Assembly (NCBI RefSeq): GCF_020085105.1
Contig: NC_058054.1
Coordinates: 6,931,595 to 6,995,594 of the forward strand
Length of the DNA stretch: 64,000 nt
Direction of reading: 5' to 3'
Source of the DNA: Siniperca chuatsi
Taxonomy: Eukaryota
The position numbers and the translations under genes are program-made. Position 1 is the first letter of the stretch. Each line of letters starts with the position of its first letter. This document shows, piece after piece, positions 1,991-64,000 of the stretch. The notes under the pieces are model-generated. The model saw only the letters and a list, made by a program, of their open reading frames with translations, made no database searches and was not told the DNA's origin.

Positions 1991-2119
1991 TTTACGAGAA
2001 ACAGTTGAGAGCTGTAACTTCAAAACTGATACATAAGCATATCGCTTTGATTAAAATAAACACAGAAATAAAAACAGCATTTTGAAATGCAGCTCTTTGG
2101 CTCAGCCTGGTTGTCTGAC

Positions 2120-2248
2120 CTGTGCAGAGAAAGCGATGATTGCGACAGAAATGGCCAGCGTTGCTCCCATAGTGATGACAACAGCAGTGGTGTTGTGGAA
2201 GGATGCAACGGTTCCCACCATGTAGGACAAGCTCAGGGTGACCACAAC
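2120..2248 (-). CDS. grina: GRINA/TMBIM3-like coding exon
   Basis: anchored on ORF 2102..2314(-); acceptor cccacag|, donor CAG|gtcaga; aa VVVTLSLSYMVGTVASFHNTTAVVITMGATLAISVAIIAFSAQ (TMBIM signature SLSYMVG...FSxQ). Confidence 0.75.
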
Positions 2249-2696
2249 CTGTGGGCACAAAATATCATCTGAGAAAGCTCTTTTTTTCATAGTTTGCTTG
2301 ATGGATAGCTTCACAAGTTTAACTACTTCAAACAGAGACTATTATTATGTTTTTAAATAATTATAGTCTTTTATAGATCTTGTAGAAAAAGACGTTAAGT
2401 GTAGACATGTTTTTTTTTTCTACCAGAAACCCTAGTGTGTGTGCACTCCTAACCCTGGCAGTGGTTGTGCTCTGCATAGTGTACCTAACAATCACAATAC
2501 AGGAAGTGCCTGTCCTAATTTAACATACCAACAAAACCTCAACTGCTCACAGGGAATCGGTGAGCATGTGTACTCAACTTAGAGACTAGAACTAGAGGAA
2601 ACTGAGGTTTTCATTTGGAAACAAAAAAAAATGTCTAAGAGAGGTCTAAATATTTAGGAAAGCCAAGCAGAAAAGTGCCTTCTTATTGAGCAACAT

Positions 2697-2701
<5 letters not shown>

Positions 2702-2736
<35 letters not shown>
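2702..2736. repeat. (TA)n microsatellite
   Basis: about 17 TA units. Confidence 0.95.
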
Positions 2737-2740
<4 letters not shown>

Positions 2741-2873
2741 TTTAAACTACAAAGCTATTAAATGTTTTGTTGTATATTTTTTACTATAGTCATCTGTGAC
2801 AGTATCTATATTGTGTAAAATGAATTTCCACATTAGATATTTGGGGTTTTATTCGCCCGTATTTGTAACCCAC

Positions 2874-3074
2874 CAGTCCCACGATGTTCCAGGGGTGACG
2901 CCGACTGAAGGACTTGCAGCAGTTGAGGGCGGTGGCAACCACGAAGAAAATGATGAAGGAGCTGAGGTAGGCCCACAGGTTGGCCTGCACCGCCTCTTTG
3001 ACCACACTGGAGAAGGTGAACACGCACACCACACTGAAGGTGAACAGCAGCTGGAGAGTCAGGATGCTGAACAC
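2874..3074 (-). CDS. grina: GRINA/TMBIM3-like coding exon (TM1-2, ...RRHPWNIVGL)
   Basis: anchored on ORF 2790..3074(-); acceptor tgtgtag|GTG, donor CTG|gtgggt; aa VFSILTLQLLFTFSVVCVFTF...CCKSFSRRHPWNIVGL. Confidence 0.75.
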
Positions 3075-3180
3075 CTACACACGGAAAGATTAAGAACAGC
3101 ACTTATAAAAATGAAGAGCTTCATTACTAAATATTCTGCACTGTAAAAGCTTATCTTAGAGTCACAGATATTGTACAAAC

Positions 3181-3471
3181 CTTTTTAACAAACCCTCTTC
3201 TCACTGTCTTGTCATCAAAAGAAGATGAGGCTATAAGTGGAGTTGTGTCCTCCGGGGCCTCCGGGCATATGTCGCGGAAAGACTCGTACCCACTGGTAGG
3301 CTGACAGGTGTAAGTTGTGTCGACTTTGGGTGGAGGGTACGTTGCCGGGGTAGCAGAGTAGGGTGGAGGTTGCTGCCCTTGGTAGGAGTACGATGGTGCT
3401 GGTGAGGACACATCATAACCAGGAGCGTCCTGTGTCTCTTTGGATGTGAGGGAGTCAGCTGTGCCTGACAT
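3181..3471 (-). CDS. grina: GRINA/TMBIM3-like first coding exon (ATG at 3471..3469; Pro/Tyr/Gln-rich N-terminus)
   Basis: anchored on ORF 3151..3504(-); acceptor cctccag|A immediately 5' of ATG; donor AAG|gtttgt; aa MSGTADSLTSKETQDAPGYDVSSPAPSYSYQGQQPPPYSATPATYPPPK...SSFDDKTVRRGFVKK. Confidence 0.7.
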
Positions 3472-4278
3472 TCTGGAGGAAACTGGGCCAAAGACAAAGT
3501 TCACTCAAATAAAAAGATGCAACTTATGCAAAAGCCAACACGGGTGCGACAGGGTGCATTCTGTTCAGCTGAAGCGTGTGAAGAAGTTCTTATTTTACAT
3601 AATTAAATATACTGTCTGATTTACTCATTCATTGATTTACCAGCAGGGTCAGTTGTCCATTTCAGCCAGTGTTGCTGATACAGTATTAAGTTGAATATTG
3701 TCAACAAGGTGTAAGCCTGAGTGCAGGTGCAACTGGACCATGTTGTATATCTCTTCAGTCATCAGTTGTCAATGACTGATGAGAGAAGAATGTGGAGGGA
3801 GATAAAAACAGCAGAAATTACAATCTCTGTTGTTGGTTTAATATAGTGAAACAGATCAGGATTTTTTAAATACAACCAGACCTGCTACTGACTTGTTGCC
3901 CAAGAATGGAGTAAACTTTAGGAAGTAAAACTTGAACTGTGGGGCCTCTTCTCTTACAGTCAGTAAACATTGTGGGAAACCAGTGTCATTTATTTAAAAA
4001 AAAAAAAAACAACCTATGAGGTCTTGGATTCATGTGTTCTCCAACAGTCCTGATAACCCATAAAAATCTGTATATTTTATCCAAGGTTGAAAACACTGCA
4101 GCAAGTTATAATAACAAGACAACTGGCCCTTTTGCCTGCTCCCCTGTGAACTGTGTTCCCTCTTTGGACTCACTCCCCTGCTTTCACCTCTGCTAGCCGG
4201 TAACTTATCTGCGTTTTGTCTGCCTGTACTTGCCTGCATACCACCCCACAATAAACATGGAAGTTCCGGCTACTTTAC

Positions 4279-19657: not shown

Positions 19658-20276
19658 GTAAGCCACGCAAGCACACACATTAACACACTACATACTACAT
19701 GCTTTTAGTATCATTTAATCAGCTAGTTGAATTTAGTTGGTGTTAAGCATTTTTCACACAGAGCAAGCCATATAAATAACATTCACCTGCTATCTGTCAC
19801 TCTACTTCAGTTTACTCCCTAACACATTTTCCTCCAGTGGTGGAAGTTTGGTAACAGCTTACTTTAACCCCCAACCCCTCATTTATCATCTATAAGCAGT
19901 ATATAAACCTATAATAAACTGTTTATAACAAAATGCAAATTTTAGAGAAATGAAAATGTGCACAATAGTCCCGTTACCCGAACAAGAACTATGATCTCTT
20001 TATTACATGCTCCTTTTTGACCCACTTAAAGCTCCTTTTTTAGAAGAAACTGAGGAGCATTTACTGTCCTCCAGCATTTTACTCATTTATTGTTTAGACA
20101 ATATGAAGAAAGAAAAGTAGACAGGGGAGTGGAGAATAAGGAGAAAGGGGTCCAGTTAGATTCAGTCTCAGGCCTGTTGTGTTATCTCTGTTGTTTGAAA
20201 GGCAAGTAACTTTACCACTGGGCTATCTCTGGGCTTGTCCTGCTTCCATTTTAAATTGTGGTTGTGTTGGTCCCAG

Positions 20277-20434
20277 GTATCCCGCTGACCTGAAGACGTT
20301 CACCCACAGTGGAATGAAGGGCGTGTGGGACAGGGAGAGAGCCGGGCAGCGAATGAAGCTCAAAGAGCCAGAGACGTGGGAACGCCTGCTCAGCCGAGAG
20401 GGCAACAAGGCCGCCACCTGGGAGAAGCTCATAG
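20277..20434 (+). CDS. tep1: tep1 exon 9
   Basis: anchored on ORF 20179; aa YPADLKTF...RAGQRMKLKEPETWERLLSREGNKAATWEKLI aligns with human RAGKRMKLSRPETWERELSLRGNKASVWEELI. Confidence 0.85.
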
Positions 20435-20988
20435 GTCTGCTGAGCGCATACAGACATTTTGTTAACTGTTTCCAAAAGTTCCAAAATGTTAAGCTGTTCC
20501 AAATTTATCCAGGGAAATTTGAACACTCTTTTTTTCCAGAAGTTGTCTGTTTCATATTGCACGTCATTTGTTTGAAAGAATAAAAGCCCTACCTTGTTAT
20601 TAGATTTACAGCATGCACAGGCCTGCTGGCCAGAACACTGTAATTACTGAATCACCAGTTCCAAGTGCATGACGATGGGAAAACTACAGTCATCACAAAA
20701 ATCTTTCATATTTTGTTTCTAAGTACTGTCTGACTTTACTGACCTACAATTTCCAATCTGGTCCAGAGTTTCATTCCAGCATTTTTCGAGTCCAAAGCTC
20801 TAAATCACTGGTATATATGGAATGAGAAAAGCAATTAATCCAGTACAACACACTTTACATGAGACATAAGTCCAAACACGTATACATTCAAAAACACACA
20901 TACTGTATGCATATAACAACCTATAAATACTTAAACACAGACATGTCCATGATCACACATATTGATGAATAATGTCTCTACTGTACAG

Positions 20989-26829: not shown

Positions 26830-26914
26830 GTAATTTTTATTTTGTGGCAAAGAAGCAATTATGGGCAGTTTTCTAATTTTATGTTTAATGTTGAACTCCT
26901 ACCTCTCTCCTCAG

Positions 26915-27206
26915 GTGGCGAGGTATACGTGTGTTTATCTCCTCCACCTTCAGAGACATGCACGCTGAGCGCGACATCTTGGTGTGGAGTGTGTTCCCAG
27001 AACTCCGGCGTCGTGCTGCGTCACACTGCCTCTACCTGCAGGAGGTGGAGCTGCGTTGGGGTGTGACAGAGGAGGAGTCGGGGCGGGCCACTGAGCTGTG
27101 CCTGTCAGAGGTGTGTCGCAGCCAAATGATGGTAGGAATCCTTGGGGAGAGGTACGGCTTGGTGCCTCCCAAACCTGTCCTCCCTGACCTGCCGCAGTAC
27201 AGCTGG
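26915..27206 (+). CDS. tep1: tep1 exon 19
   Basis: anchored on ORF 26931; aa [20 protein letters not shown]...LRWGVTEEESGRA...VGILGERYGLVPP...PQYSW, near-identical motifs to human [20 protein letters not shown]...LRWGVTEEET; donor TGG|gtaaga. Confidence 0.9.
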
Positions 27207-27654
27207 GTAAGACATATTATGAAATAAAATTAAAGAATGAATAAGTAGAGCTGTGTACACAATGTGCTCAGAGCTACTTGAATATATAAGTGAAGTACTG
27301 ATGCTTTATTCAGGGCAAGAACCTATTTTATTTAGATTGGGATTAAAATTGGCTCACTTTAATTCTCCAGGCAAGTGCAGAACAAACAGAAAATGATTCA
27401 AAGAGAACTCCTCATACTGCACTATTTTCCCATGAGGGTTCATTTTTACAGTTATGAGCCTTAAAGGGACAGTTAACCCCAAAATCAAAAATACATATTT
27501 TTCCTCTTACCTGTAGTGCTATCTATCCATCTACATTGTTTTGGTGTGAGTTGCTGAGTTTAGGAGATATCGGCTGTAGAAATGTCTGCATTTTTTAATT
27601 TAATGGGACTAAATGGCACTCGGCTTCTGGCGCTCAAAGCGAAAAACTCAACAG

Positions 27655-57024: not shown

Positions 57025-57099
57025 GATAAGGAAAAGACTCAACACTCAGGAGACTCAAATGAGAATACCTCTACTACAGAGAAGCCCAAAGACAAGCAG
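57025..57099 (+). CDS. unidentified gene exon: DKEKTQHSGDSNENTSTTEKPKDKQ
   Basis: acceptor ttgtaacag|, donor CAG|gtgggt; phase 0-0. Confidence 0.5.
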
Positions 57100-57264
57100 G
57101 TGGGTTGTTAATCAAGAGTAACTCGATCTCCTCTTTAAAACAGTTTGGACTGCACAAAACATCATGGCGTGAAAATCAGCTTTCTAAAATTAGAAAGAAA
57201 TGCTGTGACGTTGAGGTGAGGGTTAGGGCTATAAACTGTTTGGACAGTCTTTGTTTTATTTCAG

Positions 57265-57312
57265 AACGGTTTCAGTGCAATGATGAAGAGCGTGTTCCAC
57301 ACTGACAAACAG
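57265..57312 (+). CDS. unidentified gene exon: NGFSAMMKSVFHTDKQ
   Basis: anchored on stop of ORF 57105..57305 in another frame; acceptor tttatttcag|, donor CAG|gtgaca. Confidence 0.5.
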
Positions 57313-57527
57313 GTGACAGGTGGCGTACTGTACTCTTGACATTTGCTGCATGTCATCAGTTCATTTTTCTCATCATACTCCCTGAAACTAAATAGTATCT
57401 CTAGCAGAAAAGCCTAAAATTATTTAAAAAAATTATGAAGTAATCCACAGATGATGAAAAGCTAGTTATACTGCTACTAGTACTACTATTGTTTATATTT
57501 TATGATAAATATTGGCTCCATCTGCAG

Positions 57528-57596
57528 GAGAAGAACACTGACTCTGACTGTGAGGAAACATTGGACAATGGAGAGGGCCAGGCCAGTCACAAACAG
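57528..57596 (+). CDS. unidentified gene exon: EKNTDSDCEETLDNGEGQASHKQ
   Basis: anchored on ORF 57489; acceptor tctgcag|, donor CAG|gtttgt. Confidence 0.55.
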
Positions 57597-57722
57597 GTTT
57601 GTAAGGTTTTTGAATGTTCCTTTTCTTTAAGCTTTTGTCTCTTGGTTTCAATCAGCAATTTAATATCTGTATGCTTTTCTTATTTTATGTTTTTTTCTCT
57701 TTTTGTTTTGTTTCATATTTAG

Positions 57723-57773
57723 AGTAAACCTCCTGGGGCAATGACAAAGCTGAATCCATTTCGATCTGCAAAA
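57723..57773 (+). CDS. unidentified gene exon with NPF motif: SKPPGAMTKLNPFRSAK
   Basis: acceptor catatttag|, donor AAA|gtaagg; phase 0-0. Confidence 0.5.
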
Positions 57774-57865
57774 GTAAGGAGGGTTTAGATTGTAATCTTT
57801 TGATAGTTAACTGTACAGCCTCATTTATGTGTTTTCATAAAATGATTTCTGTCTTCTCTCTGCAG

Positions 57866-57931
57866 TATGAGAAGCAGGCAGGTGATGAGGATCCACCTGC
57901 GAGCAGCGAGAAGTCATCAGGCAACAAACAG
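57866..57931 (+). CDS. unidentified gene exon: YEKQAGDEDPPASSEKSSGNKQ
   Basis: acceptor tctctgcag|, donor CAG|gtgttt. Confidence 0.5.
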
Positions 57932-58279
57932 GTGTTTTGATCTTTACTTGTTCCTGTTTCATTGTGTTATTTTGGAAGTTTGACATCACATTTTTGACAT
58001 TTAACTGGTTATTTTTATTCAGCAGACACTAGTCTCATTGAAGGGTAGAAGAGTGTGTAAAGTTTGTTGTGAAAAGTCATTAGTCAAAGGTTTAAGTTTT
58101 TGAGAAGCATTTTACCCACAGGCTGCAGTCCAGCTTAATTTATTGAGATTGTGATACCTACCCAACAACCTCTAGGCCACCAAGGTGCCCCAGACAAGAT
58201 GAAACTGTTGCTCATAAAACTAAATTACATCAGTAGGGAAGCTAGAAAACATGGTAGTCTGACTAGTTTATTACAGTGT

Positions 58280-59250
58280 GATGGTGTATTATAGCGTTGT
58301 TTGCAATGTGCATGCATGGTCTCTCTCCTTAAAATGTCTTGTCAGTAGTCACGGGAGTGGAGACAGGAACAGGTTTAGGGAGTCAAAGTACAGGTTTAGC
58401 ATGACGGTGAGAGAAGCTAAACAACTGTACTCAGAGAGAATACAACACCAGTTCTCAGCCAACGACTCTGCTTCTGTCTGGAGGGGGCTCAGACAGATCT
58501 ACAAACCTGTGGCCTAAAGCCATTACAGACCCACTCCTGGACCCCCTGCAGTTCGCCTAAAGAGCCTACAGGTCTGTAGACGATACAGTAAACATGGCCC
58601 TCCACTTCATCCTCCAGCACCTGGACTCCTCAGGAACCTACGCCAGGATCCTGTTTGTGGATTTCAGCTCCGCCTCCATCCCGGCTATATTACAGGACAA
58701 GTTCTGAGTGTGCCTGACTCCACCTGCAGGTGGATCACAGACTACATGTTCGACCGGAGGCAGAATGTGTGGCTGGGGAAACATGTCTCTGACTCCCGGA
58801 CCATCAACACTGGTTCCACACTGTTCTTTCCCCTCAGCTCTTCTCCCTGTACAACCAAAAGCTGCACCTCTAGTCAGCAGTCCGTCAAGCTCCTGAAGTT
58901 TGCTGATGACACCACCCTCACTGGGCTCATCTCTGATGGGGATGAGTCCGCTTACAGGTCAGAGATTGATCACCTAGTGACTTGGTGCAGGCAGAACAAC
59001 CTGGAGCTCAACGCTCTAAAGACAGTGGAGATGGTTGTGGATTTCAGAATGAAATCACCCCGTGTGACTACTCAGTCGACACTGTGGAGTCCTTCCATTT
59101 CCTGGGCACCATCATCATACAGGACCTCAAGGACCTCACCAAGTAAGCCCAGCAGAGGATGTACTTCCTGCGGTAGCTGAAGAAATGATGGTGTACTTCT
59201 ACACCGCCATCATTGAGTCCATCCTACAAGGACTGACTGCAGTGTATCAT
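58280..59250 (+). mobile_element. degenerate LINE (L2/CR1-like) reverse-transcriptase 3' fragment inside an intron of the downstream gene
   Basis: ORFs 58278..58517 and 58710..59180 in different frames; aa ...SVWRGLRQI... and ...LLKFADDTTLTGLISDGDESAYRSEIDHLVTWCRQNNLELNALKTVEMVVDFR (RT FADD box and downstream thumb region typical of teleost L2/CR1 elements); frameshifted. Confidence 0.65.
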
Positions 59251-59785
59251 TCGCTCTGCCAAGAAAGTGATGATCATGATGTTTAAGGCGACAGGAAGTC
59301 ACTGTAGTAGTGATGGGACTGTGATAATGGTGATGTTGGTGATGTTTGTAGGGAGTTATGGTTCATTTTAGCGAGTAGTAATGATGTGCTGCACATTTAT
59401 AGGACCATACCAGTGATTTTGCATGTTATACCCTATTTACTACAGATCACACATACTTTACATCAAAACTAACCGTTTTACAAACAATGCTTTCCTACCG
59501 CTCTAGGCAACCATTGTTATCCATTTATTTTTGTACAATATGAAATTCAATAACTCTTTGCAATTTTGGTAAAAATTAATACAGGCTTGATGTCCACTGT
59601 GATGAATAACACAACCCAGACAAGTTTCAAGAGTCTGCCATTTGATTTTTATTCCATACAAAAGTGTACAATACACCATTTGTAGTTAAACTTGCAAAAA
59701 ATACTGGTATGATCCTTTAATCGCTGCACAAGTAATCTGATGGTCGCTACAGTTTAATAGCTAATATTTAATGTTCTTTGTTCAG

Positions 59786-59845
59786 AAAGACACTGAAGAG
59801 ATGCTCAAGGAGAACGAGAAACAAGTGGAAGAGAAGGTGAAAGCG
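59786..59845 (+). CDS. unidentified gene exon: KDTEEMLKENEKQVEEKVKA
   Basis: acceptor ctttgttcag|, donor GCG|gtcagt. Confidence 0.5.
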
Positions 59846-60079
59846 GTCAGTCTATTTTTTGCCTCACTCATGACTCATCAGTGACCACACACACACACAC
59901 AGCTGTGTGATCAACTTCTGTCAAAAATACCCTCCCTCCTCACGCTCCTCCTCTTCCGTACCTCCACCACATCCTTCTCATCCCCTAACTTCCCTTTAAA
60001 TCCTGCCTGCTCGTTGTCGAACCGCCATGCCCTGCTGCTCCACCACACTGTGTGACTCTGTGTGTGTGTCCTTGTCAGG

Positions 60080-60157
60080 TCAAAAGCAACATGATCCAGC
60101 GAGAGAGGAAGGAAAGAAATGAAATGCCACCGGTCCCACCCAGACCAACTGAAGAGG
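60080..60157 (+). CDS. unidentified gene exon with PPVPPRP motif: VKSNMIQRERKERNEMPPVPPRPTEE
   Basis: acceptor ccttgtcag|, donor GAG|gttcgc. Confidence 0.5.
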
Positions 60158-60267
60158 TTCGCAAGCAGTTGAACAGAACTGCTCAGTAACATGCGGTCCA
60201 AGTGAGACCATTCTGACTTCTGCTCTGTCTGTTATATTGTGTTGTTAAGGCTGTGATTTCGCCACAG

Positions 60268-60327
60268 GAGATGAAGGGGATATCCACATACGACAAAGTA
60301 AAACCAAGAGGAACTGAGTATAATCAG
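60268..60327 (+). CDS. unidentified gene exon: EMKGISTYDKVKPRGTEYNQ
   Basis: acceptor gccacag|, donor CAG|gtacag. Confidence 0.5.
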
Positions 60328-60607
60328 GTACAGTTTGCACTTCTTAGATTTACTAAATGATGTGTGGGTTGTCTGTATATTTCTGCTTCCACAGAAGTTC
60401 CACAGGTTAAATCAGTTAACTATTTTCTAATTTTATTTTTCAAATACATATATGGATAAATGATCAAATATAACAAGCAGAAAGCATGAAACTTACATAC
60501 TATGCTTTTAAATGTCATGCTTTGTACACATGGAAGTAGCACTAAGGTGTCACTCTCAGATATTGGGTATCTGTTTTGAAAAAAAGTATTTATTTCGTCC
60601 TCTGCAG

Positions 60608-60688
60608 GATTACAAGGACATGATCTCCAGAGAGAAAAAAGCAAAACCTGCAGAAACTCCTGTTGTTCCTGCCAGACCGTCAGAGGAG
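60608..60688 (+). CDS. unidentified gene exon with PVVPARP motif: DYKDMISREKKAKPAETPVVPARPSEE
   Basis: anchored on ORF 60512; acceptor cctctgcag|, donor GAG|gtagtt. Confidence 0.55.
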
Positions 60689-60817
60689 GTAGTTTAAGCC
60701 TTCAGTGTTTAGTGAATAATGGCTGTTTGTGTCAGTTTGGAGCCAATGTGTATCACTGTGTATCTATGCTGGTTTATCAGTTCTGTGGTTAAGCAAACTG
60801 CTCTGGTTTAATTTCAG

Positions 60818-60871
60818 GAGCTGAATAGAGCAGCGAGACGTGGTCTGCAAAAGCAGAAGAGCCACCATCAG
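60818..60871 (+). CDS. unidentified gene exon: ELNRAARRGLQKQKSHHQ
   Basis: acceptor atttcag|, donor CAG|gtactc. Confidence 0.5.
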
Positions 60872-62190
60872 GTACTCACATGTACACACAGTGCAAGGGT
60901 TAGACAGATTTGCTGATATTTTGGACCAGTATTGGCTGTTTATCAGCAATTGGCTATAAGAGAGGTTTCTTCCTAACCACAGCTACAAAAAAAGATAAAA
61001 CTTAAAGTCCCCTTCAGTCAGAAATGTGCTTTACCTATTGTTACTTGACTTGGATGTTCTCTGTGCAGAATGATGAATGTGCAAAGTTTGACACTACATT
61101 GATTTGCAGAAGGGGGAATGTTTCTCTGCGCTCACCTTAAATCTAGGTTTAACACGTGTACGTACCAGCAGGATTTTGTGACATCACAACAACACGCCAA
61201 TTATGGTTCAAAATGCAACTTACACAAGTTTGATGTGGAAATTTGAAACCTCTAGTGCACATACACTGAGAATGAACTTTTCAATGACATAGGAGACATC
61301 TTGTGTCTCTGACATGGAAAAGCCATATCAGAGACACAAGTTATTATTCCAAATATTTTTTGTGTCTTAAAGGTGGGGTATGTGATTCTGGAGAAATCCA
61401 GTACCATGACAAATACCATGATATAGAGCGAACAACAACACAGCAAGTAATATAACTAACGTAAGTTAGGTTGTGGGTTAGTAAACTGTCGCTACAGTTG
61501 CTGCTGCGAAGCTAACAGCCAGAGAGGACGAGATGTTTCCCAGCCAGACAGCGATACTCACAACTCTCCTGTTACTATAGCAAACATCACAACAACAGCA
61601 TAGCTTTGGCAAACTAGAAAATAAGCTGAATGTCCGTGGGCAAGTAATTTAACGTCACCTGACACACAAATCATGGCTGGAATAGTGCTGTGTGGCTCGG
61701 TTTACAGAGCCAGGGCTGTGTACAAACACCAGAAGTTTTTTCAGCTCCCACACTGAACAGACAGCTAGTGGACCCTATGGAGATATTCGCTGAACTTGAC
61801 AAAAAGACGTGTATTGGACTAGAATCGCATACCCCACCTTTAAAACTTGTCTGGAGGGGGTCTAAAAAACATCCCTATCATTTGAAAGCTGTTTCAAGCT
61901 ATTTCCACCTTAAACAAAATACAGTTCTGAGGAACCCTGAGGAACACATAAAACGTGTCAAATTTGTTGATTTGAATTTTGGCATAAAACATTGTCTGTT
62001 AACAGCCTAAATACAATAATATCAGCATTTGCTTTTACAAACCTTTATCAGTCAAACTATACACACTCAATACATACACTCAAAAACACAGGAACACATT
62101 CCAACACTTACCAGTGCACACATGTAGAAAACACTTTGCTGAAACATACTGTAAGTTTAATTCAAATCTAATTAGTTTAATTTGCCACAG

Positions 62191-62277
62191 AGCCAATCCG
62201 ATGATGAAAGCCTAAAAAAAGATGAATCTGCTGAAGCCAAAGAGGGAGGCGAGGCGAACTCTCCAGAAAGCAAAACA
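62191..62277 (+). CDS. unidentified gene exon: SQSDDESLKKDESAEAKEGGEANSPESKT
   Basis: acceptor tttgccacag|, donor ACA|gtaagt. Confidence 0.5.
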
Positions 62278-63180
62278 GTAAGTTTACTGTATCTCTTAAT
62301 CATTGTCAGTAAAACTGTATTCTTCACTAATCCTCAACATTAGTCTTAAGCTCGGGAAATGGATTGGTACACACAGTGACTGGTGTCAGAGCAAGTAAAA
62401 TGCCATGTCAGGCAAGTAAATCTAGCAACTCAAAAAGAATTAAACACATATATATATATATATAAACACGTATTTTTCTGGAGCTGATGAAGAAAGTAGC
62501 TATCTCTGTTGAGAGATGCGCATACCGATAGGGCACTCGCAAGTAGGGATGGCTACTGAAACCTGATATTAAACGGGCCCCGGGGTTAATTCATTAAAGA
62601 CTGTAGTATTACCACGCTCACTGCAGCCTCTCCTTCTGTCTGTGTCTTGTTTGTTATTTGTATATTTATATAACCTCTAATAAATCAAACAATTTGTATA
62701 GGGGCAAGTAAAAATTGACTTTGGGCAAGTGGATTTCTGATCATTTGCCCAGAAAAACCTCAATGTTGAACCCTGGGTGTAGAGACTGATTAACCTATGT
62801 AGTGTGTAGGTATTTGAGACTTTTTGTCAGTGTCTAAATTGACTGTGTGGTATGAACCCACATTTGCTGCTACCCGGGTTTGTGTACTAAGTTTTTGAAA
62901 ATAGACATAAATAGACATGGGTGCTTTAATTTATATATTTTGTGCAAGAATAGAAATTAAAGTTTTGATATTTTTTTTTAGTTAAAGTAACATCACTGTA
63001 ACATAGTCAAGCCTCTCTCTCTTTTTAATTGTTGTCTGTGAGCTTCTGTAAAGCCTGCTAGTTCTCATTATACAAATTGGCCCCGGAAAGTCCTTGAGAA
63101 GTCCTTGAATGAAATGTAGTTCTCTTGCAGCAGCTTCTTATGTCACCTAACACACTGTCACTGTGCCATTGTCTTTACAG

Positions 63181-63237
63181 ACCATGGTGAAGAAACACAA
63201 GCACCGTAATCCGTTCATGCCACAAGCTGCAGCCAAG
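63181..63237 (+). CDS. unidentified gene exon with NPF motif: TMVKKHKHRNPFMPQAAAK
   Basis: acceptor tctttacag|, donor AAG|gtattt. Confidence 0.5.
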
Positions 63238-63715
63238 GTATTTTCTTGATTTTGTACTTCGAGTAGGGTAAATACAGTCATGGAGACATTTATTCTCTTT
63301 GCACCTACCTCAGTTGGTTATATATACTATACCTAATTCATTACCTCCTCAATTTTTTTGACACAGCCTACACAATGAGCACCAGTTGTGTTTTTCCACT
63401 AGACTTATTTAGTCTACCTTTATGAGGAAACCACTGAGCTGGTTACCTAGCTGCTGGTGTGAAGATCAGGGAAGATAAAAGAATAATAAAAGAAGATAAA
63501 AATACATTATTTTGCCATTAATATTATATAATAGTTAATTTTTTGCTTTGTAACAAATTTTTAATTTGTTCCAATAAGATCACTTGTTTTTACCTCCAGA
63601 ACAGCTCTGCCTTTGAGTAATTGTATGGGAATTGGGAACCAATATCAGCCCAAAGCAAAATGTTATATTGATATTACAAATGCTTCATCTGCGTGTTTGT
63701 GTTTGTTGGTTGCAG

Positions 63716-63769
63716 GGCAAAGTTATACAGAGGCAAGCACAGGGCGGAGCTGCAGGCAACACAGACGAG
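63716..63769 (+). CDS. unidentified gene exon: GKVIQRQAQGGAAGNTDE (gene continues beyond window)
   Basis: anchored on ORF 63632; acceptor ggttgcag|, donor GAG|gtagag. Confidence 0.5.
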
Positions 63770-64000
63770 GTAGAGAAAATAAAACACTCATCAGTCTTTG
63801 TTTCTCTAAATGAGACAGAAAATTGTATTTGATGTTGCTTCTCTTTCTTTCTCTCCCTCAGTCACATTACATATAAAGCAACTTTTAGCCTTTTCCCACC
63901 CAGTCTGTGCCACTGTATTTATCCACCAGACTGACATGTTGTAGTCTTACTCATTGGGGTTCAGGATTACAAAAGCAGTTTCATTTACCCAACATGTCCC

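Follow-up and report, generated by a model that had tools for sequence, protein, structure and literature searches.

Conserved NPF and class II SH3-type motifs in the exon-modular, predicted disordered N-terminal tail of a teleost apolipoprotein L gene, apol1, in Siniperca chuatsi

The stretch analyzed here, referred to as the window, comprises 64,000 nucleotides of vertebrate (fish) genomic DNA from Siniperca chuatsi (contig NC_058054.1, positions 6,931,595 to 6,995,594) with short exons and long, AT-rich introns. Its downstream part carries a plus-strand chain of small exons encoding three Asn-Pro-Phe (NPF) and two PxxPxRP motifs, and the gene tep1 lies immediately upstream on the same strand. 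The motif-bearing exons are almost certainly the N-terminal disordered extension of a teleost ApoL-domain gene annotated as 'apolipoprotein L, 1' (apol1). A first-pass annotation had placed all five motif peptides in downstream exons, and all of them were located where it had claimed, in small plus-strand exons. However, the span it gave (57723-63237) holds only four of them, while the exon encoding KNPFTSS lies just outside. It had also been unable to match the protein to a named family, which a sequence search with the translation now provides.

The concatenated exon peptide matched 101 teleost proteins, with the top match in Seriola dumerili (E = 2.9e-123, 77% identity). The majority of these bear the name 'apolipoprotein L, 1' or 'apolipoprotein L1' and are 550-800 residues long. 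The ApoL domain (PF05461) was found in every full-length orthologue (E = 1e-33 to 1e-38), where it occupies the C-terminal 250-300 residues, and the match to the window covers all of the protein ahead of this domain. The window stops inside the intron following its final exon, ahead of the exons expected for ...NEGGNRSLFDQLEDF...WWNTVE and the ApoL domain; judging from the orthologue architecture, the ApoL-domain exons of the Siniperca gene would be placed beyond base 64000. Significant similarity to annotated apol1 proteins, together with exon-by-exon matches, assigns the gene to the apol1 orthologue group (ZFIN name 'apolipoprotein L, 1'; zebrafish ENSDARG00000007425), whose members share the sequence, the colinear exons, the position downstream of tep1 and the architecture of a disordered N-terminus followed by PF05461. 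The order of tep1 and apol1 on one strand was seen in the window and in Limanda limanda, the one other genome compared. The Limanda genome also contains colinear copies of nearly all window exons, including upstream repeat exons omitted by the Limanda annotation. Furthermore, database proteins on contigs of 1.7-3.9 kb hold the window exons in the same order (e.g., 587 aa on 3.7 kb), and since such contigs are too short for introns, these proteins probably represent spliced transcripts. The apol1 gene is thus not new, being already annotated in many fish genomes, and the names of its relatives are inconsistent across sources (L1, L2-like, L3-like, L6-like, apold1a/b). EHBP1 or another named NPF adaptor was considered and excluded, as the homologues are all ApoL-domain proteins: Pfam found no ENTH, EH or NT-C2/CH/bMERB-type adaptor domain in the 472-residue peptide, and no such proteins were among the 101 homologues.

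The exons that encode the three NPF and two PxxPxRP motifs are open, in phase 0 and bounded by AG and GT. When the 472-residue peptide was shuffled 200,000 times with its composition preserved, NPF occurred 0.044 times on average; three NPFs came up in one shuffle, and two P..P.RP motifs likewise in one (1/200,000 each). A 458-residue version of the peptide gave 3/200,000 shuffles for each motif count. Since the choice of motifs was made with the sequence already known, conservation is a stronger argument than these shuffles. An NPF is carried by 96 of the 101 homologues, always N-terminal to the ApoL domain, and the five remaining proteins look like truncated or mis-split gene models, with the ApoL domain missing in four of them as well. 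The proline motif was found in 87 of the 101. Conservation in orthologues, on which the first-pass annotation had staked its proposal, is therefore borne out, and the motifs are likely to be functional short linear motifs.

The NPFs sort into three positional classes, A, B and C, with conserved flanks (Table 1). All three were found in eel, tarpon and halosaur, which dates the classes to the teleost ancestor. Class C, the NPF nearest the ApoL domain, also occurs in Danio, Cyprinus, Misgurnus, Scleropages, Paramormyrops, Arapaima, Denticeps, Albula and catfishes, and in an alignment of 35 species its residues N360, P361 and F362 are the sole invariant columns within a disordered region of ~400 residues. 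Given recognizable flanks, the core reads NPF in 37/46 cases for class A (SPF in cichlids), in 16/20 for class B (otherwise ISF, NLF or NIF) and in 76/78 for class C, which indicates that the constraint is strongest on class C and relaxed on the other two. In a Danio orthologue, the N-terminal part spans only ~160 residues and has no NPF but that of class C, whereas the Siniperca tail, at ~470 residues, includes repeats, three NPFs and two proline motifs. Outside the teleosts, sturgeon and paddlefish homologues show NRR-NPF-MKTE directly upstream of the ApoL domain, and no basic-NPF motif was found in the gar gene model. In Seriola, Epinephelus and Limanda, an extra SDDE-rich exon and a second KVKKPKRH-NPF-MPR exon were observed; no such pair is visible in the Siniperca intron 63238-63715, so that Siniperca seems to carry a single class C copy.

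Both proline motifs fit the class II SH3 ligand consensus (PxxPxR). The class I form [RK]xxPxxP does not occur in the window peptide, and of the earlier label 'class-I/II' only the second half can be kept. The extended consensus is (K/R)x(E/K)xxE(T/M)PxVP(P/A)RP(T/S)EEE(L/M)(K/N), in which the T/S-E-E-E tails fit the CK2 phosphorylation consensus, at the level of the consensus only. Residues 377-388, from the exon of the second proline motif, match p47_phox_C (PF08944) over 12/33 profile positions with 13 bits (E = 0.074) against a gathering cut-off of 27 bits, and a salmonid paralogue reaches 25.3 bits, also below the cut-off. Membership in the p47phox_C family was rejected on these scores; the resemblance may be read at the motif level only, as that of a segment working like a class II SH3 ligand. 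Similar to the start of the profile, which covers the proline-rich stretch at the C-terminus of p47phox, the tail motifs have the core P-x-V-P-P/A-R-P-S/T, but they continue into EEE, whereas p47phox continues into a helix. The p47phox region is a ligand of the C-terminal SH3 domain of p67phox (PMC2121648). A PDB sequence search with the proline-motif region returned only a spurious Plasmodium MSP1 match (E = 1.6).

Tyrosine-containing motifs were observed in addition. The N-terminus, M-DRYDDLDLECDGGGVA (51443-51660), is strongly conserved, following M(D/E)RY(D/G)N(L/M)DL(D/E)LECDG in 39/101 models, and its acidic-flanked YxxL may act as a tyrosine sorting signal or as a motif of the LC3-interaction type. 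In elopomorph apol1 (P0056 from eel, P0024 from tarpon, P0021 from halosaur), LPIYENV, PPSYETV and LPLYEEV repeats stand in place of PxVPPRP. By their letters, they resemble YxxΦ or SH2-type tyrosine motifs and may represent a lineage-specific swap of motif type.

The tail is built from 22 short phase-0 exons (51613-63769), every length being a multiple of three, with AG acceptors and GT donors except for one GC donor. The orthologues start with M-DRYD, in agreement with an ATG at the end of exon 1, and the encoded tail amounts to 472 residues in the window. The borders of exons 59786-59845 and 60268-60327 were refined against orthologues and a transcript-like contig, which left the motif peptides unchanged. 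The KNPFTSS exon with its GC donor, rated as lower-confidence in the first-pass annotation, is real, because an orthologous exon is present in Seriola (GGVAAKILKNPFTSSSQ) and a colinear one in the Limanda genome (KNLKNPFTSSFQ). Exons 53844-57931 largely alternate between a basic-hydrophobic type (GGMFxGMFKKSPKP) with a net charge of +1 to +4, e.g., QKPALFGGMFKRSFKS and ETGGMFSGMFKKSPKPFG, and an acidic Ser-rich type (ELSASNDSLS) with a net charge of -1 to -5, e.g., ELSGSNDSLSVNINTK. Owing to the uniform phase 0, motif-bearing exons can be skipped or included as a whole with the reading frame kept. Seriola isoform models differ by one 18-residue NPF exon, the orthologue of 57723-57773, and both Seriola and salmon models differ by the orthologue of exon 60818-60871. 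Differences of exactly one such exon make cassette-type splicing plausible, with the isoforms being gene models and not measurements. Read-through of the donor at 59845 (59846-59881) gives ...VKAVSLFFASLMTHQ followed by a stop, and the transcript-like protein P0002 (517 aa, 1.7 kb contig) ends similarly with ...PKAVSLFSTSLMSHH; this may reflect a tail-only isoform without the ApoL domain, formed by intron retention, or just close species relatedness.

Table 1. Features of the window, with exons of the apol1 tail, the consensus of the three NPF classes and domains of the upstream gene tep1.
Feature	Position	Strand	Encoded peptide	Remark
TROVE (tep1)	20140-20580	+		
DUF4062 (tep1)	26895-27224	+		
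TEP1 beta-propeller (tep1)	39325-39618	+		
apol1 start codon	51443-51445	+		final three bases of exon 1 (ATG/GTGAGT)
Exon 2, conserved acidic N-terminus with YxxL	51613-51660	+	DRYDDLDLECDGGGVA	94% identical to colinear Limanda L001 exon
Basic-hydrophobic repeat exon	53844-53915	+	QKPALFGGMFKRSFKSAEPSVQAQ	
Acidic Ser-rich repeat exon	54172-54237	+	DSSSASGELSKRNDSLTDNSTK	
Basic-hydrophobic repeat exon	54326-54394	+	EKEGVFKGMFKKTTKTAKEGQPQ	
Acidic Ser-rich repeat exon	54600-54662	+	DLLDNKLTASNDSLSENIATK	
Basic-hydrophobic repeat exon	56039-56110	+	ETGGMFSGMFKKSPKPFGGRTQPQ	
Acidic Ser-rich repeat exon	56210-56278	+	EDFSAPNELSGSNDSLSVNINTK	
Acidic exon	56640-56702	+	DDLSADGELSARVSLIEKPSK	
NPF class A exon	56854-56904	+	GEVAAKILKNPFTSSSQ	holds KNPFTSS; GC donor (CAG/GCAATT); class consensus G(I/V)(M/A)GK(I/M)(L/F)(K/R)-NPF-(T/N)SSxQDKE
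Acidic/polar exon	57025-57099	+	DKEKTQHSGDSNENTSTTEKPKDKQ	
Basic-hydrophobic exon without NPF	57265-57312	+	NGFSAMMKSVFHTDKQ	
Acidic exon	57528-57596	+	EKNTDSDCEETLDNGEGQASHKQ	
NPF class B exon	57723-57773	+	SKPPGAMTKLNPFRSAK	holds LNPFRSAK; class consensus AMxKL-NPF-RSA(N)K
Acidic exon	57866-57931	+	YEKQAGDEDPPASSEKSSGNKQ	
Exon	59786-59845	+	KDTEEMLKENEKQVEEKVKA	donor refined to GTCAGT
SH3-type motif 1 exon	60079-60156	+	VKSNMIQRERKERNEMPPVPPRPTEE	holds MPPVPPRPTEE
Exon	60268-60327	+	EMKGISTYDKVKPRGTEYNQ	acceptor refined
SH3-type motif 2 exon	60608-60688	+	DYKDMISREKKAKPAETPVVPARPSEE	holds TPVVPARPSEE
Basic exon	60818-60871	+	ELNRAARRGLQKQKSHHQ	orthologue is a cassette in isoform models from Seriola and salmon
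Acidic exon	62191-62277	+	SQSDDESLKKDESAEAKEGGEANSPESKT	
NPF class C exon	63181-63237	+	TMVKKHKHRNPFMPQAAAK	holds RNPFMPQ; polybasic context; class consensus K(V/M)KK(P)K(R)H-NPF-(M/L)PR
Final exon within the window	63716-63769	+	GKVIQRQAQGGAAGNTDE	

Upstream of apol1, the tep1 gene (telomerase-associated protein 1) fills positions 16300-48210 on the plus strand, its last coding stretch ending at ~48210. On the minus strand at 2000-3500, another gene is suggested by open reading frames whose translation is rich in Pro and Tyr (...QQPPPYSATPATYPPP...) and then turns hydrophobic in stretches. The minus-strand open reading frames tried at 2.1-3.5 kb and a plus-strand one at 16.3 kb had no Pfam match, and no tRNA was found by a scan of 48-64 kb of the window. 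The intron 57932-59785 contains a decayed reverse-transcriptase open reading frame at 58518-59177 on the plus strand (RVT_1, E = 6e-4, 20 bits, below the cut-off), probably a retroelement remnant, which accounts for the GC-richer stretch there.

The tail is predicted to be disordered, as the first-pass annotation had proposed, and the motifs would lie in an accessible region. No Pfam family scored above threshold on the 472-residue peptide, the sole signal being the p47_phox_C match described above. Disorder-favoring residues (A, G, R, Q, S, P, E, K, D, N, T) make up 81% of this peptide, which contains no Trp. An AlphaFold2 (AF2) model of the salmon orthologue P0020, built on a 35-sequence alignment, shows no secondary structure for residues 1-398, with a predicted local distance difference test (pLDDT) value of ~30, and helices begin just before and within the ApoL domain. 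With a mean pLDDT of 37.5, the model is low-confidence throughout and was used solely as a disorder indicator. The orthologue ApoL domain contains an uncharged hairpin of ~50 residues (ITGGSTSAIGGVATIAGLALAPVTLGTSLIVTAVGLGVAAAGGLTSAGAGI), which has no acidic residues, as described for APOLD1. The acidic N-terminus shows no hydrophobic h-region, unlike a signal peptide, and the tail resembles the intracellular APOLs in this respect. The lack of a signal peptide and the uncharged hairpin together make a cytosolic tail most likely. APOLs without a signal peptide sit on the cytoplasmic membrane face (PMC8557400), and the APOL family acts in membrane remodeling, fission, fusion and trafficking (PMC11726835). 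A PDB search with the full orthologue gave only a weak similarity to bacterial pore-forming toxins of the ClyA family (NheB, MakA, MakE; E = 0.07-0.13), located in the ApoL domain of the Seriola protein (P0001, residues 450-563), which is not significant alone.

A profile-free scan of 1.8 billion cluster representatives returned 1361 relatives, the best of which include three further teleost groups, namely apold1a, apold1b and si:cabz01007807.1. Their ApoL domains are 40-50% identical and follow long, exon-modular, disordered N-termini like that of apol1, but the motif mixes differ from apol1 and the proteins reach 700-1700 aa. As in apol1, apold1a combines GGMFxGMFKKSPKP and ELSASNDSLS units (up to ~12) with an N-terminal PxVPPRPT, and it has an additional long charged C-terminal tail. 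In the si:cabz01007807.1 group, NPFs lie in the N-terminus, and the eel and arapaima members add dozens of D(L/I)FQ repeats. EH domains, AP-2 appendages and clathrin are the classic binding partners of NPF, DPF and DLL/DLF-type motifs. For 95 representatives, clustered at 50% identity, the N-terminal regions contained 94 NPF compared to 6.6 expected from shuffles, 46 DPF (11 expected), 107 DLF (9 expected) and 61 DIF (3.6 expected), although tandem repeats and shared ancestry inflate these counts; the control tripeptides SPF, TPF, NPL and NAF occurred at ~1x the expected number. With this caveat, the family as a whole looks wired to the endocytic machinery. In Limanda, a second gene start with PTPVVPPRPSD, EKGGLFSGIFKK and ELSASSDSLSEN was observed downstream of apol1 (L001, 21281-25695). 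This apold1a-like paralogue apparently lies in tandem with apol1, which suggests that the paralogues arose by local duplication. No paper mentioning apold1a or apold1b was found in our literature search.

With regard to function, we propose that a multivalent cytosolic tail couples the hairpin-anchored ApoL domain to EH- and SH3-domain trafficking proteins, a tentative reading of the sequence to which we give at best an even chance. The hairpin-anchored ApoL domain would be the membrane-acting part and the tail a cytosolic, multivalent, low-affinity tether. Its NPFs would engage EH scaffolds of the Eps15, Eps15R, intersectin or REPS type rather than EHD1-4, its PxxPxR sites would engage SH3-domain proteins, and the basic-hydrophobic repeats would raise the affinity toward anionic membranes or toward one another. 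The tail might thereby position the ApoL domain at membranes of the endocytic or recycling route, or sort it there, and splicing would adjust the valency of the tail. The choice of EH partners follows from the residues after the NPF, which are T/N-S-S in class A, R-S-A in class B and M-P-R in class C, none of them acidic. EHD-type EH domains (EHD1-4) prefer acidic residues at this place (PMC13282721), e.g., NPFEEEEED, a rule to which no NPF of the tail conforms. If the NPFs are EH ligands at all, N-terminal-type EH domains, as in Eps15, Eps15R, intersectin and REPS, are therefore the likelier readers. Single NPF-EH contacts are weak, with a dissociation constant above 100 µM (KD >100 µM), and act through multivalency (PMC6524969, PMC12808100), which fits the three to five NPFs per tail.

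Several observations weigh against this coupling. Every binding-partner assignment is drawn from consensus motifs, and NPF is also read by unrelated proteins, which makes a consensus-based assignment of partners unreliable (PMC12808100). Orthologues from elopomorphs and Danio lack the PxVPPRP motif, the low pLDDT of the AF2 model supports disorder weakly, and the family-wide tripeptide counts are inflated as stated. Cichlid orthologues (P0013, P0039 and others) retain the flanks of classes A and B, but their cores read SPF and ISF. This natural experiment suggests that the class A and B NPFs are dispensable or redundant, and with the flanks kept, the constraint there may not be on EH binding. 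In apold1b, the NPF stands within the repeat (GVFRGMMQKVNPFKS units), with GVFRGMMQKV-NPF-KS occurring five times, whereas apold1a, with up to ~12 GMFxGMFKK units, contains zero NPF, unlike apol1. Because apold1b shows this intermediate and the exons of classes A and B are in register with the alternating series of +1 to +4 and -1 to -5 exons, the NPFs of these two classes are spellings of the basic-hydrophobic repeat GGMFxGMFKK. An alternative built on the same facts holds that the conserved unit is the repeat GxΦΦxGΦΦ(K/R)(K/N)(S/P)(P/F) itself, binding anionic membrane or itself, with the A/B NPF as one tolerated spelling and EH domains not involved. Such a repeat presumably compares to the effector domain of MARCKS (FKKSFK) or to FG repeats. 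We consider this alternative rather unlikely, as it leaves unexplained that NPF is the sole invariant element and that class C lies outside any GMF-type module, and likewise the 14-fold family-wide enrichment of NPF, which is absent for SPF, TPF and KPF; the flank-matched retention of NPF in classes A and B also speaks against it.

The remaining alternatives fare worse. The motifs might be sorting signals on a membrane cargo, where the NPFs and the N-terminal YDDL (YxxΦ) would mark the ApoL protein for internalization or recycling. The predicted membrane anchoring via the ApoL hairpin, the conserved N-terminal RY(D)xLDLE and the LP(I/L)YE(N/E)V repeats of elopomorph orthologues agree with such a role, and a precedent exists in yeast, where NPF serves as a cargo signal and NPFx(1,2)D is read by Sla1 (PMC2199253). 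However, 0/3 NPFs have the Sla1-type NPFx(1,2)D that would be needed, and three to five NPFs plus SH3 ligands over ~450 residues are more typical of scaffold-type tails, which renders the cargo explanation improbable. For class C, a partner other than an EH domain has to be weighed as well. Embedded in a polybasic cluster, this NPF keeps a roughly constant distance from the ApoL domain (~60-120 residues upstream in teleosts, ~10-50 in paddlefish and sturgeon) and could serve that domain directly, through an intramolecular or lipid-facing contact, which again counts against the proposed coupling. Alternatively, the K-K-x-K-R stretch, which matches K[KR].[KR], could be a nuclear localization signal combined with a nuclear NPF reader such as POLE2, which binds NPF motifs with a preceding Arg (PMC12808100). 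The AF2 model, however, shows no structured contact at class C (pLDDT ~38), POLE2 is unlikely to have a hairpin-anchored membrane protein as its client, and there is no positive evidence for nuclear localization, so that we regard a non-EH partner of class C as very improbable. Finally, chance tripeptides in low-complexity sequence or mispredicted pseudo-exons are effectively excluded. The sequence abounds in K, S, E and P and the motifs were selected with the sequence in view, but the shuffle counts, the orthologous conservation across teleost orders, the colinear exons in the Limanda genome and the transcript-like contigs containing these exons all contradict such an origin.

Compared to known systems, the proposed coupling of the tail to EH- and SH3-domain proteins would resemble that of epsin, synaptojanin-170, Rabenosyn-5, EHBP1, MICAL-L1 and SCAMPs, which likewise carry several NPFs in a disordered, presumably cytosolic region together with SH3 ligands, and for which avidity is expected. 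In contrast to epsin-type tails, the apol1 tail shows no homology to them and has no ENTH/C2/CH or other adaptor domain; unlike the partners of EHD1, its NPFs are not followed by acidic residues (PMC13282721), and unlike other endocytic NPF tails, it is attached to a membrane-inserting ApoL domain. The earlier proposal of an endocytic or membrane-trafficking adaptor-like protein hence needs to be recast: the segment is conserved and rich in trafficking motifs, and related fish proteins are rich in other endocytosis-type motifs, but it is the N-terminus of an ApoL gene and no free-standing adaptor. Human APOL1-6 and APOLD1 share the Pfam domain of the fish orthologues, and no NPF/PxxP-rich tail is described for human APOL proteins in the literature examined. 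The ancestor of the ApoL family was APOLD1-like (PMC8557400), and relatives from caecilian (286 aa) and bichir (298 aa) are short, without the long N-terminal extension. A literature search linking ApoL with NPF or EH domains gave no relevant paper, the terms co-occurring only in an unrelated hub-gene analysis of type 1 diabetes. In the literature searched, an ApoL membrane domain joined to a tail of endocytic-type motifs is thus without report.

Most work on ApoL proteins concerns human APOL1 kidney disease and innate immunity, and zebrafish apol1 is used as a stand-in for human APOL1. Its knock-down or F0 editing damages the glomerular filter, and these studies used a short gene model (~2.6 kb locus) and discussed ApoL-type domains only, with the tail unmentioned (PMC4492502, PMC4854397). 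If the tail binds EH- or SH3-domain proteins, this would provide a concrete route for targeting an ApoL membrane domain to trafficking sites, and it would call for caution against taking phenotypes of fish apol1 as a simple model for human APOL1. Should the motifs have no such partners, the tail is still a clear case of disorder built by exon duplication, with one invariant tripeptide in every aligned teleost orthologue and a similar motif in sturgeon and paddlefish. A wider view, which we hold to be possible but doubtful, is that the ray-finned ApoL subfamily (apol1, apold1a, apold1b, si:cabz01007807.1) consists of effectors hard-wired to the EH/clathrin/SH3 network via NPF, DPF, D[LI]F, YxxΦ and PxxPxR tails, with a valency tuned by cassette splicing. 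Considering the basic-NPF-M motif in sturgeon, the link between ApoL and endocytosis, if true, would predate the teleosts. It would then represent an unrecognized direct connection of ApoL proteins to the endocytic and recycling machinery and could explain the disturbance of the podocyte filtration barrier upon loss of apol1 in zebrafish.

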